From sequence record PV390659.2: DNA of 64,000 bases. One strand, given 5' to 3'. Of this stretch, positions 176 through 8,993 are shown one piece after another. This stretch comes from Escherichia phage vB_EcoM_P8. The position numbers and the translations under genes were made by a program. Numbering within the stretch: position 1 is the first letter of the stretch; each line of letters starts with the position of its first letter. The notes beneath the pieces are model-generated. The model did no database searches and was not told where the DNA came from. It saw nothing but the letters and a program-made list of their open reading frames with translations.

Positions 176-1066
176 ATGTCAGTAGTAATTAATAATGTCA
201 ATGCAGTAATTAAATCATTAGTTAATAAAAAAATGATGAATGAATGGACTGTACTTCGCCGTGGAGAGCCAGATAAATTTTTTCATAGATTTAACCCAAC
301 TTTGGATTTGAATGTTATCGACAAAGATGTTCATGCAGAAATTTTAGATAAGTTTAAAGTTGATATTGGATTTGGATTAGAAAAACATTTGCAGCGAACA
401 AGCGGATCTGGAATGAGTTTATCTAATCGCATTATGAAAGCCCTTAATAAAATTGGAGCATTGTCTCGTATTAATGCGAGTGAAATCCTTCGTAATTATA
501 ATAAAGGATATGACCTTTATGGTCGACTGATGCCAAAATTATCATTCGATCAAATGATAGCGGATTTGTGGGAAAATCAAAGACGATTATTAGCATTAGG
601 CGCTCGATTAGCTAAAGGTCTAGATAAACAAATGATTTTTAAGACCAATAATACAGAAGACCTTAAATGCTTTAAATTTAGTATTCGCGGAGATGATTAT
701 TACATCAGAGCTCGCTCTACAGATTATGTTAATATGGGACATCATCTCTGTTTAGCTTTTGAAGTTTTAAAAGAAGCTGGAACATTAGAATATTCATCTG
801 GTGCAAAATGCCCTATTGGTTCAAGTTGTATTTTAATTTATCGCCCGGATGAATCCAGTTCAACTAAATTGCCTACGAAACCTGTGCTAGTTCGTAGTAA
901 CGAAAAACATTCTGAACAAATTGATTATTTTAATAAGCAGATTGAAGAGCTGAATATTTCTATTCAACAATATGACGATGAAATTTTCAGACTATCTGGA
1001 TTGAGTAGTAAAGCTAAATCTGAGCGTGAAAAGTTAATTAAAATTGTTGATTTACTTAAATCTTAA
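176..1066 (+). CDS. hypothetical protein, member A of four-paralog array, C-terminal coiled coil
   Basis: ORF track 140..1066; ATG at 176 follows GAGG RBS; E/K/L-rich heptad-like C-terminus. Confidence 0.6.
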   Translation: MSVVINNVNAVIKSLVNKKMMNEWTVLRRGEPDKFFHRFNPTLDLNVIDKDVHAEILDKFKVDIGFGLEKHLQRTSGSGMSLSNRIMKALNKIGALSRINASEILRNYNKGYDLYGRLMPKLSFDQMIADLWENQRRLLALGARLAKGLDKQMIFKTNNTEDLKCFKFSIRGDDYYIRARSTDYVNMGHHLCLAFEVLKEAGTLEYSSGAKCPIGSSCILIYRPDESSSTKLPTKPVLVRSNEKHSEQIDYFNKQIEELNISIQQYDDEIFRLSGLSSKAKSEREKLIKIVDLLKS

Positions 1067-1074
1067 GGAACACT

Positions 1075-2103
1075 ATGAAAACTCGTTCTCAAATTGAAGA
1101 TATGGTTCGTAATGCCAGCTATACTCGTGATGTTATGACATTTTTGTGTGAAAATAATTTAGACCCTGATAAAGTTAATCGTGTTATTCATCACTTTAAG
1201 TATACGAATAGCAGTGAATGGGTGCGTAATTTTAGTAAAGCAGGGTATATTACACAAATGACGGCTCGTGAGCAGCTCACCGATTTCTGTAAAACTATTG
1301 ATTATAAAAATCCTCTATTTGTTCAAGGCGTCGGTCAAAGTAAGGTCGATTTATCATCTGGATTTTTCAATCCAAATCATTATCGTATTGAATGGAGATT
1401 TATTGCTCTGTTCCGTAGACAATTAAAGCAAATTTTATCAACTGCGAGTCGATTAAAAGGTTCTGATATTAACTTAAAGAATCTGAAATTTGATGGTTAT
1501 ACTCTTCAGATGGAAGTAAGACCATTAAAAGAAAATAATAGAACTGCACGAATTAGCTTTAAACCTAATACAAAAAATTCTCTTTCAATTTGCGAATGCC
1601 TTAAATCGCAGTTGACAGAAGCATTTAAGTATATGGATGTTGTTGCCGCTGTTCAGTCTAAGATTTTACCTCGTTTTGAGCGATTTAAATTAGACACAAC
1701 AACATATGAACTTGATATGATCGTTTCATTTAAATACGATTTTTTGAGAAAGGACGAAGTCCCGCAAGAGAAAAAGCAGGAAGTGCAAGATAACTTAAAT
1801 TTAAATTTATCCAATTACTCATCAAACGATCCTAAATTTTGGATGTATAGCTCAGGTAATGAAGATGCATGGAAATTCAATAAAGTGAATTTTCTTCCTG
1901 TTGAAAATCCGAGTCTTAAACCTGTTGAAAAATGGCATGCAGATGCGATTGAAAAGTCTATCAAGGCAGTAGATGATGAACTCGTTAAAGCAACTAATGA
2001 AGTGTTAGAAGCTGAAAAGATGCTAGAAAAAGCTCAAGAAAAAGTCAAAAATCTCACGAAGCAACGTTCTAAACTGAACAATGCACTAAATGCACTGAAC
2101 TAG
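1075..2103 (+). CDS. hypothetical protein, member B of four-paralog array, C-terminal coiled coil
   Basis: 342-aa ORF, AAGGA RBS; N-terminus MKTR.. as in member D; coiled-coil C-terminus. Confidence 0.65.
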   Translation: MKTRSQIEDMVRNASYTRDVMTFLCENNLDPDKVNRVIHHFKYTNSSEWVRNFSKAGYITQMTAREQLTDFCKTIDYKNPLFVQGVGQSKVDLSSGFFNPNHYRIEWRFIALFRRQLKQILSTASRLKGSDINLKNLKFDGYTLQMEVRPLKENNRTARISFKPNTKNSLSICECLKSQLTEAFKYMDVVAAVQSKILPRFERFKLDTTTYELDMIVSFKYDFLRKDEVPQEKKQEVQDNLNLNLSNYSSNDPKFWMYSSGNEDAWKFNKVNFLPVENPSLKPVEKWHADAIEKSIKAVDDELVKATNEVLEAEKMLEKAQEKVKNLTKQRSKLNNALNALN

Positions 2104-2132
2104 TTTACTTTACCACAAGGATGTGGTATAAT
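2103..2132 (+). promoter_or_regulatory. T4-type early promoter (GTTTAC -35, 18 bp spacer, TATAAT -10)
   Basis: gtttac at 2103-2108, tataat at 2127-2132; 30 bp identical to 48035-48064. Confidence 0.6.
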
Positions 2133-2160
2133 GTTCTTACTTTCTACTGAGGAGATTAAT

Positions 2161-3162
2161 ATGACTCGTAACGAATATATCAAATCATTCAATAGCGTTA
2201 TTGATGATAAAGTTAAACCTATGTCTAGTCAGAATAGTGTTCTTTCTATTATCAATCAATGGCTCAATAATATTGATGTAAGCATTGTTTCTTCCAGCAG
2301 ATTTATTCACGAAGTTCGTGAAATTTCTAGTCGTACAGATAAAGATGACATTAAGAAAACCTTTAAAGGGTCTCGTCTTCTTTCATACTTAGTCAACAGA
2401 GATATTCTTGGTAAATTTGGGAAAGAAATTAAACGAACTAAAGATGTAGTAGGATATAATTGGTTCGGTGATGTTAATTCTTATCATCTTAATAATAAAG
2501 AAGACCCTGAGAATATTTTTACTCGTCGTTGGATTAGTAATTTCAGGCTTTTCAAAGGACAGATTCTAAAATCAGCTTCTAAATTATGTTATGGCGATTA
2601 TCGTCAAATTCATCCTTTGGCTTCTGATATGGTTATCGTAAAAGAATATGAGCTTGATAAAAATAAAGTAGCTATTTTTGTGAATTATGGATTTTTTACA
2701 CCAAACGCTAACCAAAAGAATATTAATAAATTTTTCTCAATTGCTAGCACTATAACTTATCAATTAGAGGCGGCTTTGGGCTGTATGGAAACCGTAAAAA
2801 GTATTCATACATATCCTTTCAAAAATATGTGTGGTTGGGAAGGATATAAAATTATAATTAGCCTTCGTGAAGTGAAACGTACGTACTCACCGACTGATAA
2901 AGAAATTTACCAACAAAAATGTGATGAAATTGTGAATACTCCTAAAGAAGAAACTACCCTTGAAGAACTAATGGATAATCTTGACGATTCGCCTGAACCG
3001 ATAGAAATTCGTCCAGAAGTTATTGCACTAGAAAAAGCTTATAAAGAAGTTCTAGAAATTTCTAATAAAGCGCAGAAAGAATATGAGAAGGCTAAAAGGA
3101 TTTGGGAAGAATCTGTTAATCGCCTTGATCGTTTGGAACAAGCTTTACAGTTAATTAAGTAA
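2161..3162 (+). CDS. hypothetical protein, member C of four-paralog array, C-terminal coiled coil
   Basis: ORF track 2131..3162; ATG 2161 follows GAGGAG RBS and lies downstream of promoter; N-terminus TRNEYIKSFNSVI resembles member D TRKHYIDYFDSLI. Confidence 0.65.
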   Translation: MTRNEYIKSFNSVIDDKVKPMSSQNSVLSIINQWLNNIDVSIVSSSRFIHEVREISSRTDKDDIKKTFKGSRLLSYLVNRDILGKFGKEIKRTKDVVGYNWFGDVNSYHLNNKEDPENIFTRRWISNFRLFKGQILKSASKLCYGDYRQIHPLASDMVIVKEYELDKNKVAIFVNYGFFTPNANQKNINKFFSIASTITYQLEAALGCMETVKSIHTYPFKNMCGWEGYKIIISLREVKRTYSPTDKEIYQQKCDEIVNTPKEETTLEELMDNLDDSPEPIEIRPEVIALEKAYKEVLEISNKAQKEYEKAKRIWEESVNRLDRLEQALQLIK

Positions 3163-3214
3163 TTTAAAGCCAAGGATGGCTCGGAGCATAAATCATTAAC
3201 CAAGTGAGAAGAAC

Positions 3215-4144
3215 ATGAAAACTCGTAAACATTATATTGATTATTTTGATAGTCTTATTACTAAACATCGTAATTATCAGATAGGACACAGAGCAGTAAT
3301 CAATAATATTCTTCGTGATTTTTTAGACTATATTGGATGGGAAAACCATATTTGTAAAGATACACAAAATGCGTATTCACATTCTCTTGGTTCTTTGCTA
3401 GAGTGGTTCAAACGTTCCCGATTACTATCTTCTGTGATAGCTCGTGATAACATTAAAAACTTTATGAAGCCGAGCTTTATTAAATCTGAGACATCTATAA
3501 CTGATTTGGTTGAATTTACTATTGTTAACGATGTTAAAAAGACCCATTTGGCTGATTGGTTATCTACCATTCCTGAAACTAAATTTGCTGATAAATTTGC
3601 TTGTCAATTCAATGACCAAGTGAATATGCTTTTTAAGCATGCTCGCAGACTATTTACCGCAGGCGATGACCGTACAAATACAGTTCATGTTAAGGATTGG
3701 GTTATTGCTGATGAAGTAACACACAAGCCAGGTGGTTCATCAGTATTAATTAATATCCAGGTTCCTTATTATTACTCACGTAATCTTGGCACCATGACAG
3801 CTAGAGAAATTAATAAGCACAACAAAACTATTCGTTCGTTGTCTTATAAACTCTGCACGATGGTGGAGATGATGGACGTAGTGGAAATGTATGACGAAAC
3901 CGAAGATAATGGTTCAATGTTATACAGCTCACGCATTCTAATTAAACTGAAGAATCCTAATACATATAAGCCAGTTGTAAAAGAACCTAAAGTAGAAAAG
4001 GTTGATAACCTGAGCGAAGAACGTGAATATCTCAATGCTCGTTTGATTGAAGTTGAAGCTCAGATTGCCGAACATACCAAATTGTTAAAAGCTCTTAATG
4101 CAAAAGCAAATGGTTTACGTAATGCTATTGAGGTACTGAAATGA
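3215..4144 (+). CDS. hypothetical protein, member D of four-paralog array, C-terminal coiled coil
   Basis: 309-aa ORF; shared N-terminal motif with member C; coiled-coil C-terminus. Confidence 0.65.
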   Translation: MKTRKHYIDYFDSLITKHRNYQIGHRAVINNILRDFLDYIGWENHICKDTQNAYSHSLGSLLEWFKRSRLLSSVIARDNIKNFMKPSFIKSETSITDLVEFTIVNDVKKTHLADWLSTIPETKFADKFACQFNDQVNMLFKHARRLFTAGDDRTNTVHVKDWVIADEVTHKPGGSSVLINIQVPYYYSRNLGTMTAREINKHNKTIRSLSYKLCTMVEMMDVVEMYDETEDNGSMLYSSRILIKLKNPNTYKPVVKEPKVEKVDNLSEEREYLNARLIEVEAQIAEHTKLLKALNAKANGLRNAIEVLK

Positions 4145-4458
4145 AAAAGCGCTTATTAGAAGATATTGCAGCTTCAAGTAATTCCAGTCTAATTAAAATT
4201 ATTATGGCTGGTGAAGAAGACGATCTAGAAATGCGTGGAAAGATTCATGGCGATGATGATCTAGACTTTAAACCTCCTGCTTGGGATGCCATTATGGTTA
4301 TGGTTGAACGCCGCGAAAGGGCTTCTAAGAATGTTCCGAACTGCCCAAAATGTGGTACTGAACAGGTTCAATTAATTCATTGGCAGACTAGTAATCTTCG
4401 TTATAAATGTCGTCATTGCAAACACCGATTTAACCGAGAAGAAAATGACCAAGCGTAA
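4141..4458 (+). CDS. small zinc-ribbon protein
   Basis: 105-aa ORF, ATGA stop-start overlap; C-terminal CPKCG..17..CRHC motif. Confidence 0.55.
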
Positions 4459-4688: not shown

Positions 4689-4952
4689 ATGTTTAAAGTA
4701 TATGGTTATGATAGCAACATCCACAAATGTGTGTATTGCGATAATGCAAAACGTCTTTTGACTGTGAAGAAACAGCCGTTTGAATTTATCAACATTATGC
4801 CGGAAAAAGGTGTTTTTGATGATGAGAAAATTGCTGAGCTTCTGACGAAACTAGGTCGTGATACTCAAATTGGCTTGACGATGCCTCAGGTATTTGCTCC
4901 TGATGGAAGTCATATTGGTGGATTTGACCAATTGCGGGAATACTTTAAATGA
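4689..4952 (+). CDS. nrdC: phage thioredoxin/glutaredoxin NrdC
   Basis: 87 aa, CVYC redox motif, sequence matches remembered T4 NrdC. Confidence 0.9.
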   Translation: MFKVYGYDSNIHKCVYCDNAKRLLTVKKQPFEFINIMPEKGVFDDEKIAELLTKLGRDTQIGLTMPQVFAPDGSHIGGFDQLREYFK

Positions 4953-5906: not shown

Positions 5907-6082
5907 TGAAAACTGAATTGATTTATACTGAAAAGTTAAATGGTGGTAAGGTTTGGAAACTTTTTATTAAAGGAAATTCTACAGACCCTAATATGACCAC
6001 TTGTGTAGGAACTTATTCTCGTCCTACTAAAAAGATGATTCGGCAATATAAGCGATTGCATCGAATGTTTTACAATACTTGA
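5906..6082 (+). CDS. hypothetical small protein (58 aa)
   Basis: ATG overlaps preceding stop (TAATG); followed by hairpin accctta..taagggt plus T-run. Confidence 0.3.
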   Translation: MKTELIYTEKLNGGKVWKLFIKGNSTDPNMTTCVGTYSRPTKKMIRQYKRLHRMFYNT

Positions 6083-6124
6083 AAATAATAAATACCCTTA
6101 TCTATTTAAGGTAAGGGTTTTATT

Positions 6125-6598
6125 ATGTTATTGACTGGCAAATTATACAAAGAAGAAAAACAAAAATTTTATAATGCACAAAACGGTAAATGCTTAATTT
6201 GCCAACGAGAATTAAATCCTGATGTTCAAGCTAATCACCTTGACCATGACCATGAATTAAATGGACCAAAAGCAGGAAAGGTACGTGGGTTGCTATGTAA
6301 TCTCTGTAATGCTGCAGAAGGTCAAATGAAGCATAAATTCAATCGTTCTGGCTTAAAGGGACAAGGTGTTGATTATCTTGAATGGTTAGAAAATTTACTT
6401 ACTTATTTAAAATCCGATTACACCCAAAATAATATTCACCCTAACTTTGTTGGAGATAAATCAAAGGAATTTTCTCGTTTAGGAAAAGAGGAAATGATGG
6501 CTGAGATGCTTCAAAGAGGATTTGAATATAATGAATCTGACACTAAAACACAATTAATAGCTTCATTTAAGAAGCAGCTTAGAAAGAGTTTAAAATGA
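6125..6598 (+). CDS. 49: endonuclease VII (Holliday junction resolvase)
   Basis: 157 aa, matches remembered T4 gp49 (MLLTGKLYKEEKQKFY.., Cys-rich zinc site). Confidence 0.9.
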   Translation: MLLTGKLYKEEKQKFYNAQNGKCLICQRELNPDVQANHLDHDHELNGPKAGKVRGLLCNLCNAAEGQMKHKFNRSGLKGQGVDYLEWLENLLTYLKSDYTQNNIHPNFVGDKSKEFSRLGKEEMMAEMLQRGFEYNESDTKTQLIASFKKQLRKSLK

Positions 6599-8412
6599 CA
6601 ATTGAAAAAGAAATTGAAGGATTGATTCATAAAACTAATAAAGACCTTTTAAACGAGAATGCTAATAAAGATTCTCGTGTTTTTCCAACTCAACGGGACC
6701 TTATGGCTGGTATTGTGTCTAAACACATTGCCAAAAATATGGTCCCGTCTTTTATTATGAAAGCGCATGAAAGCGGAATTATCCATTTCCATGATATTGA
6801 TTATTCCCCTGCTCTTCCATTTACTAATTGCTGTTTAGTAGATTTAAAAGGAATGCTTGAGAACGGATTTAAGCTCGGTAATGCGCAGATTGAAACTCCT
6901 AAATCAATTGGCGTTGCTACTGCAATTATGGCACAAATTACTGCACAGGTTGCTTCTCATCAATATGGCGGAACGACTTTTGCGAATGTAGATAAAGTCC
7001 TTTCTCCTTATGTTAAACGCACCTATGCAAAACATATTGAGGATGCAGAAAAATGGCAAATCGCAGATGCATTGAATTATGCCCAATCTAAAACAGAAAA
7101 AGACGTATACGATGCATTCCAAGCTTACGAATATGAAGTAAATACTCTCTTTAGTTCAAATGGACAGACTCCTTTTGTAACAATTACATTTGGTACGGGA
7201 ACTGACTGGACTGAACGAATGATTCAGAAAGCAATTCTGAAAAATCGCATTAAAGGTCTTGGCCGTGACGGGATAACTCCTATTTTCCCTAAGCTTGTTA
7301 TGTTCGTTGAAGAAGGCGTTAATCTTTATAAAGACGATCCGAACTATGATATTAAACAGCTTGCTCTAGAGTGTGCAAGCAAAAGAATGTATCCTGACAT
7401 CATTTCGGCTAAGAACAATAAAGCTATCACCGGTTCATCTATTCCTGTTTCTCCAATGGGTTGTCGTAGTTTCTTGAGTGTATGGAAAGATTCGACTGGT
7501 AATGAAATTCTTGATGGACGCAATAATCTTGGCGTTGTAACACTGAATCTTCCTCGTATTGCGTTAGATTCTTATATTGGAACACAGTTCAATGAACAGA
7601 AATTTGCCGAATTGTTCAATGAACGAATGGATTTGTGTTTTGAAGCTTTGATGTGTAGAATTAGTTCATTAAAAGGAGTTAAAGCGACTGTTGCTCCTAT
7701 TCTTTACCAAGAAGGTGCATTCGGGGTTCGTCTTAAACCTGATGATGACATAATTGAGTTATTTAAAAATGGTAGAAGTTCAGTGTCCCTAGGATACATC
7801 GGTATTCACGAATTGAATATTCTTGTCGGTCGTGATATTGGACAGGAAATTTTAACTAAAATGAATGCTCGTCTTAAGCAGTGGACTGAAAGAACTGGTT
7901 TTGCTTTTAGCTTGTATTCTACACCTGCTGAAAACCTGTGCTATCGCTTCTGTAAACTTGATACCGAAAAATATGGAAGTGTAAAGGATGTTACTGATAA
8001 AGGATGGTACACTAATAGTTTCCACGTTTCAGTAGAAGAAAATATCACTCCGTTTGAAAAGATTTCTCGAGAAGCCCCATATCATTTCATTGCGACAGGT
8101 GGTCACATTTCTTATGTTGAACTTCCTGATATGAAAAATAACCTAAAAGGTCTTGAGGCTGTATGGGATTATGCTGCACAACATTTAGATTATTTTGGTG
8201 TTAATATGCCAGTAGATAAATGTTTTACATGTGGAAGTACCCATGAAATGACTCCAACCGAGAACGGATTTGTTTGTTCTATTTGTGGAGAAACTGATCC
8301 TAAAAAGATGAACACAATAAGAAGAACTTGTGGTTATTTGGGAAATCCGAATGAACGCGGATTTAATCTCGGCAAAAATAAAGAAATCATGCATAGGGTT
8401 AAACACCAATGA
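6595..8412 (+). CDS. nrdD: anaerobic ribonucleoside-triphosphate reductase NrdD, uninterrupted
   Basis: 605-aa continuous ORF with C-terminal CxxC..CxxC glycyl-radical region; no intron-sized interruption. Confidence 0.95.
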   Translation: MTIEKEIEGLIHKTNKDLLNENANKDSRVFPTQRDLMAGIVSKHIAKNMVPSFIMKAHESGIIHFHDIDYSPALPFTNCCLVDLKGMLENGFKLGNAQIETPKSIGVATAIMAQITAQVASHQYGGTTFANVDKVLSPYVKRTYAKHIEDAEKWQIADALNYAQSKTEKDVYDAFQAYEYEVNTLFSSNGQTPFVTITFGTGTDWTERMIQKAILKNRIKGLGRDGITPIFPKLVMFVEEGVNLYKDDPNYDIKQLALECASKRMYPDIISAKNNKAITGSSIPVSPMGCRSFLSVWKDSTGNEILDGRNNLGVVTLNLPRIALDSYIGTQFNEQKFAELFNERMDLCFEALMCRISSLKGVKATVAPILYQEGAFGVRLKPDDDIIELFKNGRSSVSLGYIGIHELNILVGRDIGQEILTKMNARLKQWTERTGFAFSLYSTPAENLCYRFCKLDTEKYGSVKDVTDKGWYTNSFHVSVEENITPFEKISREAPYHFIATGGHISYVELPDMKNNLKGLEAVWDYAAQHLDYFGVNMPVDKCFTCGSTHEMTPTENGFVCSICGETDPKKMNTIRRTCGYLGNPNERGFNLGKNKEIMHRVKHQ

Positions 8413-8879
8413 ATTACGATAGATTTTATCCCTGTGATTTTGTGAATGGCCCTGGATGCAGGGTCGTTCTTTTCGTTACAGGTTGTTTGCATAAATGCGA
8501 AGGGTGTTATAATAAATCAACATGGAACGCTAGAAATGGCGTTCCATTCACTGGTGAAACACTAGAACAATTAATTGAATGTTTGAATAATGATTATATA
8601 GAAGGATTAACTATAACTGGAGGAGACCCTCTCTATCCTGATAACCGAGATGTTATTCATTGCATTGTTCAAACAGTAAAAAATCTTTATCCCAATAAAA
8701 GCATTTGGTTGTGGACAGGATATAAATTTGAAGATATTAAACAACTAGAAATGCTTAAATATGTTGATGTTATTATTGATGGGAAGTATGAGAAAAATCT
8801 TCCGACCAAAAAGTTGTGGCGAGGTTCAGATAATCAGCGACTTTGGTCAAATACCGATGGGGTGTGGAAACATGATTAA
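8409..8879 (+). CDS. nrdG: anaerobic RNR activating enzyme NrdG (radical SAM)
   Basis: 156 aa, CxxxCxxC-like N-terminal cluster, ATGA coupling to nrdD. Confidence 0.9.
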   Translation: MNYDRFYPCDFVNGPGCRVVLFVTGCLHKCEGCYNKSTWNARNGVPFTGETLEQLIECLNNDYIEGLTITGGDPLYPDNRDVIHCIVQTVKNLYPNKSIWLWTGYKFEDIKQLEMLKYVDVIIDGKYEKNLPTKKLWRGSDNQRLWSNTDGVWKHD

Positions 8880-8993
8880 ACTGAATTATATTATTGATAC
8901 TATAAATGATATGATTTTTCATTTTGGTCCAGAATTTTATTCGCAGTATAGTTTAGTACTTATCAATGCTTGGTTAATCAATTAAGGGTAAAT

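Follow-up and report, generated by a model that had tools for sequence, protein, structure and literature searches.

Near the start of a 64,000-nucleotide (nt) stretch of Escherichia phage vB_EcoM_P8 (record PV390659.2; hereafter the window) lie four consecutive open reading frames (ORFs), which we call A, B, C and D. They are orthologues of the already known T4 genes nrdC.6, nrdC.5, nrdC.4 and nrdC.3, one of which, nrdC.5, has a published function. Our best explanation, and one that we regard as probable, is that this early-transcribed array of four ancient paralogues forms a counter-defence battery of non-enzymatic, oligomeric immune antagonists. The preliminary description of this DNA had reported four consecutive same-strand ORFs with an internal early promoter (2103–2132) between B and C; the ORFs are real (A 176–1066, B 1075–2103, C 2131/2161–3162 and D 3215–4144), and both a promoter scan and the annotation of phage SA20RB bear out the promoter. 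The region comprises the following features:

176–1066, + strand: A, orthologue of T4 NrdC.6; 296 amino acids (aa), phrog_2257, 98% identity to T4 across the alignable part.
1075–2103, + strand: B, orthologue of T4 NrdC.5; 342 aa, Pfam DUF7235/PF23882, phrog_2351, 96% identity to T4.
2102–2132, + strand: T4-type early promoter, GTTTAC-N17-TATAAT, from its sequence, the promoter scan and the SA20RB annotation.
2161–3162, + strand: C, orthologue of T4 NrdC.4; 333 aa, PF26897, phrog_1435, 89% identity to T4.
3215–4144, + strand: D, orthologue of T4 NrdC.3; 309 aa, PF26897, phrog_1435, 63% identity to T4.

The first 6.6 kb of the window are 100% identical to Escherichia phage vB_EcoM_BMB16 and approximately 95% identical to hundreds of further Tequatrovirus genomes, an agreement that places its source in Tequatrovirus. 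All four ORFs lie on the + strand, the direction of T4 early transcription, and are annotated alike in T4 and related phages. Annotation transfer and direct comparison both give the orthology stated above, with B (95.9% identical to T4 NrdC.5) sitting between the nrdC.6 and nrdC.4 orthologues; downstream of the array follow, in order, nrdC.2, nrdC.1, nrdC, pin, gene 49 and nrdD. The comparison with T4 nrdC.10 and nrdC.11 that had been proposed for these proteins concerned the wrong genes, both of which are located upstream of the window (nrdC.11 is a nucleotidyltransferase).

The functional anchor for the array is B. A study by Srikant, Guegler & Laub (eLife 2022, PMC9391042) reports a T4 deletion mutant that fails to plate on ECOR17 or on MG1655 carrying ECOR17 dsr1, whose plating on dsr1 cells is restored by plasmid-expressed nrdC.5 alone; the regions deleted in the mutant are described there as dispensable on MG1655. 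Dsr1 is a sirtuin NADase, that is, a SIR2 effector that depletes nicotinamide adenine dinucleotide (NAD+), with a TPR sensor that is reportedly triggered by the phage major capsid protein (2026 preprint, PMC12803255). B shares the length class and genomic position of T4 NrdC.5, and matches PF23882 across its full length (425.7 bits against a cut-off of 30; profile positions 1–307 of 307). From its 96% identity to the tested T4 protein, we infer that B is a counter-defence protein against Dsr1. A, C and D have the head–linker–coiled-coil build of NrdC.5 and are remote homologues, 13–24% identical to B. In the literature searched, NrdC.5 is the only reported Dsr1 antagonist, and beyond the eLife 2022 paper we found no work on nrdC.3, nrdC.4, nrdC.5 or nrdC.6, on these genes under other names, or on ‘anti-Dsr1’.

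Sequence profiles and fold comparison together indicate that A–D are homologous along their whole length and belong to one superfamily specific to T4-like phages. C and D are, by their alignment scores, clear paralogues (BLASTP E 9.5e-8; hhalign probability 98.3%, E 1.2e-14): both match phrog_1435 (2.9e-165 and 8.8e-116, respectively), and their close homologues all carry a precomputed PF26897 assignment. B aligns with C by hhalign (P 2.4e-4) over 234 collinear columns, and is the only PF23882 member of the four, no match to this family being found in A, C or D at E values up to 0.1. A is a strong match to phrog_2257 (E 2.8e-150). Compared with B, C and D by pairwise BLASTP or by direct hhalign, A gives nothing significant, so its link to them is seen only via intermediates. 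Two such intermediates come from genera with a single gene copy: the Marfavirus protein is matched by both the B and C profiles, and the Kanagawavirus protein by both the A and B profiles. An iterative hidden Markov model search started from C accordingly pulls in D, the Marfavirus member, the Kanagawavirus member, B and lastly A. With full-length sequences A is reached at 9.6e-5, but a reversed family decoy also scores 4.7e-4; because coiled-coil composition inflates scores in this manner, the search was rerun with the last 70 residues cut from every protein and reversed sequences as decoys. The tail-less profiles retain the links (3.8e-8 from B plus Marfavirus to C; 8.7e-6 from B, C, D plus Marfavirus to Kanagawavirus; and, for the pair Kanagawavirus and A, 6e-5 in the direction of A and 1.4e-3 in the reverse, against decoys of 0.14 or worse), and the best reversed decoys lie at 0.015–0.96. 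Paralogy as first proposed for the four proteins is clear between C and D; B joins this pair by way of the Marfavirus protein, and A by way of the Kanagawavirus protein.

A joint alignment of the families reveals three collinear motifs in the heads (SRLLS..AR..L..FG; IL..ASRL..GD; QL..A...MD.V) and a fourth element, the tail, which runs from P.E to a terminal [QE]R.KL..A[IL]..LK. Support independent of the sequence profiles comes from a fold search with the C model against BFVD, which returns the Kanagawavirus member from IME523 (335 aa) and the Marfavirus member from P545 (315 aa) at full length and probability 1.0; matches of the same length and probability are to a D-type protein and to proteins from Pectobacterium phage PM2, a Tegunavirus and other phages. 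A is the most remote member, and we consider the profile support for its inclusion moderate. C and D are full-length members of PF26897/phrog_1435 and A of phrog_2257, both uncharacterized families that the databases hold apart from DUF7235; here they are joined via the Marfavirus and Kanagawavirus intermediates. This link between DUF7235, PF26897 and phrog_2257 appears to be new, as do the head–linker–coiled-coil build and the copy-number and cassette dynamics described below.

The four proteins are predicted to share a modular build: an α+β head of approximately 225–245 aa, a disordered linker of 15–60 aa and an amphipathic, predicted coiled-coil helix of 47–60 aa. The individual parts are as follows:

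A: head, residues ~1–225; C-terminal helical tail, residues ~241–296 (nt 896–1063).
B: tail, residues 283–342 (nt 1921–2100).
C: α+β head, residues 1–240; disordered linker, residues 245–284; tail helix, residues 285–332 (nt 3013–3159).
D: tail, residues 263–309 (nt 4001–4141).

The AlphaFold model of C (predicted local distance difference test score, pLDDT, 84.3) is formed by an N-terminal helical subdomain (residues 1–84), an α/β subdomain up to residue ~240, a low-confidence linker (245–284) and the tail helix. A single long terminal helix is modelled both in C (residues 285–332) and in B (residues 283–341), and among PDB sequences the B profile has weak matches to tropomyosin and keratin. 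We tested the last 49 residues of each protein for heptad periodicity against 2000 composition-preserving shuffles; the observed score was reached by 1/2000 shuffles for A, 0/2000 for B, 16/2000 for C and 0/2000 for D. Counted from the C terminus, the heptad register is identical in B, C and D. In the family alignment the A tail carries an invariant DDEIFRLSGL motif.

These results recast the preliminary description of the proteins, which had combined divergent N-terminal domains with conserved tails. Its E/K/L/A-rich, heptad-like C-terminal segment is present in all four, as the shuffle test and the AlphaFold helices of C and B agree. The heads, however, are homologous too, and the tails are no better conserved between paralogues (12–24% identity) than the heads (13–23%). 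Instead of a common oligomerization tail, each paralogue has its own tail sequence, the shared elements being the architecture and the end motif [QE]R.KL..A[IL]..LK. Likewise, an N-terminal motif ascribed to B, C and D is held by C and D as TR[NK]xYIxxF, B having only the initial M-K-T-R.

Tail divergence also bears on the possibility that the tails bring all four proteins together in a single hetero-oligomer with one function, for example Dsr1 inhibition. Such a complex would suit genes that are adjacent and co-oriented and tails that are all heptad-periodic, end in a similar motif and, in B, C and D, keep the same register from the C terminus. We nevertheless consider it improbable. Between paralogues the tails diverge as the heads do, and within each orthologous group the tail is kept, somewhat better in fact than the head; homo-specific pairing is favoured for this reason. 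The copy number varies from one to four across genera, and the NrdC.6 tail has been lost by frameshift in the T4 reference. In addition, nrdC.5 alone complements the deletion phage, the text consulted of the eLife 2022 paper leaving unstated whether nrdC.3, nrdC.4 and nrdC.6 were deleted with it.

Searches for an enzymatic activity were negative throughout: A–D match no enzyme family in Pfam or PADLOC, the PDB holds no significant match to the three sequence profiles (A, B and C+D) or, by Foldseek, to the C model, and inspection of the joint alignment by eye finds no typical catalytic column (His, Asp, Cys or Ser) conserved across the families. With no enzyme family or conserved catalytic constellation visible, stoichiometric binding is the most likely mode of action. 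As antagonists of this kind, A–D would each use the variable head to bind a particular host immune protein, and the paralogue-specific tail is predicted to drive homo-oligomerization, which would add avidity against oligomeric sensors. Further defence proteins, or variants of the same kind of sensor, would be the targets of A, C and D.

A different origin for the head is suggested by weak BFVD matches that include Caudovirales proteins of 130–150 aa, one of them annotated as ‘tail completion protein’. On this basis the head could be a derived tail-terminator (gpU-like) domain, acting as a mimic or decoy of a virion protein or persisting as the relic of a duplicated morphogenesis gene, an idea with some appeal given that Dsr1 and DSR2 both sense virion proteins. 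We regard this as very improbable. Against the PDB, Foldseek yields nothing significant (lambda gpU, E 0.46) and neither does the C+D profile, no Pfam tail-protein family is matched, and the reported Dsr1 trigger is a capsid protein rather than a tail terminator. The wider set of tail terminators (lambda gpU, T5 p142 and SPP1 gp17-like proteins) shows no significant Foldseek or sequence similarity to the NrdC proteins, which by comparison are early, non-structural and of roughly double length, and carry a linker, a coiled-coil tail and an additional helical subdomain at the N terminus.

DSAD1, which is encoded by SPbeta-group phages and inhibits the DSR2 sirtuin, is, according to published abstracts, a functional analogue: like NrdC.5, it counters a SIR2-domain NADase with a C-terminal virion-protein sensor. 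It differs in coming from another phage group and in targeting DSR2, not Dsr1. Profiles of A, B and C+D find no significant chain in the PDB, a search that spans any deposited DSAD1 chains. DSAD1 is not known to have a coiled-coil tail.

The distribution of the family is, judged by these searches, narrow. Run exhaustively against 1.84 billion representative proteins, the C+D profile recovered 11. All matches to B and to C are close T4-like phage relatives, and so are those to D, save two short and weak ones to unrelated proteins. Among 50,697 phage records, A occurs in 741, B in 543, C in 553 and D in 653. The genomic slot is constant, directly upstream of nrdC.2, including in Marfavirus and Kanagawavirus; its content is not. 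Tequatrovirus carries A-B-C-D, Gaprivervirus- and Dhakavirus-type loci A-B-C, and Mosigvirus A′-B′-D′; Marfavirus and Kanagawavirus have one copy each, and Tegunavirus has two that are non-adjacent. D is the most variable member, with allele classes at approximately 94, 75 and 63% identity. In Mosigvirus moskry (5923–8946) the D-type protein is 76% identical to D of the window, compared with 32% for the A-type and 24% for the B-type protein. That Mosigvirus D′ is 76% identical while A′ is only 32% identical suggests that the D cassette has been exchanged horizontally between genera.

All four genes are under purifying selection and evolve faster than their neighbours (ratio of non-synonymous to synonymous substitution rates, dN/dS, 0.08 for A, 0.18 for B, 0.19 for C and 0.26 for D; 0.00 for nrdC and 0.06 for nrdC.1). 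Decayed family copies, which may be frameshifted, fused or truncated, are frequent. In a counter-defence battery, duplicated genes, cassettes exchanged between genera and copies frequently lost would tune the set of antagonists to the hosts that each lineage meets.

For A, C and D we infer a counter-defence role from homology, architecture, early expression, the shared slot and these accessory-gene dynamics. Of the functions first envisaged for the array, a diversified host-takeover or anti-defence family holds in so far as the four form one superfamily and anti-defence is backed for B through T4 nrdC.5; the alternative of a modular sensor family finds no support. It is possible, though in our view rather doubtful, that B alone is an immune antagonist, and that the other three paralogues play no part in counter-defence and have taken on different early functions, for instance in host takeover by binding metabolic, transcription or envelope proteins of the host. 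The 13–23% head identity between paralogues leaves room for a changed function, no phenotype is reported for nrdC.3, nrdC.4 or nrdC.6 in the literature searched, and PMC9391042 describes the region as dispensable on laboratory strains of E. coli. Dispensability on K-12, however, fits counter-defence equally well, and all four proteins share the same architecture, fixed slot and early expression; copy-number change, allelic cassettes and frequent decay are, moreover, typical of accessory host-range genes.

Several further points weigh against a four-member battery of non-enzymatic antagonists. The experimental tie to defence concerns B only, through its T4 orthologue, and the literature searched contains no report of direct NrdC.5–Dsr1 binding or of the molecular mechanism of NrdC.5. 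Gene-wide dN/dS is below 1 in A–D, which gives no arms-race signature, and A is joined to the others through remote profile statistics only. The AlphaFold model of B is of low confidence (pLDDT 58.7, from a shallow alignment), its secondary-structure order being the same as that of C. Finally, proteins that lack a recognizable catalytic motif may still act enzymatically or by binding RNA or DNA.

A broader proposal, which we advance tentatively and think unlikely to hold in full, is that nrdC.3–nrdC.6 are the visible part of an unrecognized antagonist family across T4-like phages. Each paralogue or allele would disable a different virion-protein sensor (for example, from the TPR group of Dsr1 or Avs7), perhaps by means of a tail-terminator-like decoy surface, and the set of one, three or four genes would help to set T-even host range.

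T4-like phages, the best-studied of the lytic phages, find wide use in therapy, yet most of their early accessory genes are without known function. Superfamily placement makes three ‘hypothetical proteins’ (A, C and D) specific candidates for counter-defence, and extends the same candidacy to relatives in Mosigvirus, Dhakavirus, Gaprivervirus, Kanagawavirus, Marfavirus and Tegunavirus. Variation in the copy set may be a cause of host-range differences among otherwise near-identical phages. Both the superfamily link and the architecture are directly testable, and yield a prediction for three uncharacterized genes.

Early expression of C and D is indicated by the promoter at 2102–2132 (GTTTACTTTACCACAAGGATGTGGTATAAT), which consists of GTTTAC, a 17-nt spacer and TATAAT with an extended GTGG. 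It is the top match of the promoter scan (10/12 matches with a TG extension) and fits the T4 early promoter scheme of a GTTTAC −35 box, a spacer of ~17 nt and an extended −10 box (GTGGTATAAT); a T4 early promoter is annotated at the same place in phage SA20RB. By these signals it is a near-consensus T4 early promoter that would drive C and D. Its position also affects the choice of start codon for C: ATG 2131 falls within the −10 box, ATG 2161 is preceded by a Shine–Dalgarno sequence (GAGGAG, 2149–2154) and opens a protein that begins MTRNEYI, and in the alignment T4 and most homologues use this 333-aa form. The most likely start of C is therefore ATG 2161. The promoter spacer holds a 7-bp inverted repeat (2111–2128; TACCACA AGGA TGTGGTA) just 3′ of the B stop codon, which a terminator scan flags as well; it could double as an attenuator of read-through from A and B. 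Scans of the region for DNA repeats and against Rfam returned nothing relevant, indicating no recent duplication and no RNA element.

Many GenBank records name the nrdC.3–nrdC.6 orthologues, along with other nrdC.x genes, ‘thioredoxin’. Pfam finds no thioredoxin or glutaredoxin domain in A, B, C or D, and only the true nrdC (4689–4952) matches PF00462; the label has spread from the gene symbol, with no domain behind it in A–D, and this widespread annotation of nrdC.3–nrdC.6 can now be corrected. Other low-scoring hits were set aside, namely the Pfam matches DUF3905, PHL and DUF4164 (each below its own cut-off) and a PADLOC match to the BrxC coiled coil at 12.9 bits, which we attribute to composition. 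We also dropped an earlier view of D as a duplicate of C confined to Tequatrovirus, as Mosigvirus has a D-type gene (76%) in the place of C.

Individual cases of decay take several forms. In a 299-aa fusion protein (P0056) the central part of NrdC.5 runs into the C-terminal half of NrdC.3, nrdC.4 having been deleted; a frameshifted nrdC.4 (L009, 6971–8003) is split into ORFs of 193 and 158 aa. Phages Pinarejo, ACG-C40 and Manna retain only the last, tail-coding 47–83 codons of A, D or C. The T4 reference sequence (NC_000866) has a 1-nt deletion in nrdC.6 (GAGCTGAATATT to GAGCTG-ATATT) approximately 120 nt before the end of the gene, which leaves a 275-aa NrdC.6 without the conserved tail (DDEIFRLSGL...LLKS), the downstream DNA still being near-identical. 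Judged from the sequence, either laboratory T4 has recently acquired a pseudogenizing frameshift or the record contains a sequencing error. Two database relatives of NrdC.3 and NrdC.4 (P0157 and P0160) differ nearly only by S→F, P→L, R→C and A→V changes; this pattern of C-to-T conversion, as in bisulfite-treated or deaminated libraries, marks them as probable assembly artefacts.

The family slot is bordered downstream by nrdC.2 in all genera examined. In the window this gene (4141–4458) encodes a small protein that bears a CxxC...CxxC zinc ribbon at its C terminus, for which all Pfam zinc-ribbon matches are sub-threshold; the D stop codon and the nrdC.2 start overlap in ATGA, and the length of the protein ranges from 73 to 129 aa among related phages. 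Further downstream, nrdD (6595–8412) is a single uninterrupted ORF of 605 aa in the window, and in T4 and SA20RB it contains an intron with a homing endonuclease (I-TevII type) and has a neighbouring mobC-type gene. Outside the NrdC family and unrelated to it, Acinetobacter phage Acj61 (6229–8938) carries adjacent genes for a nicotinamide phosphoribosyltransferase and a ribose-phosphate pyrophosphokinase, a pair that looks like NAD+ salvage and would provide another route against NAD-depleting defences.

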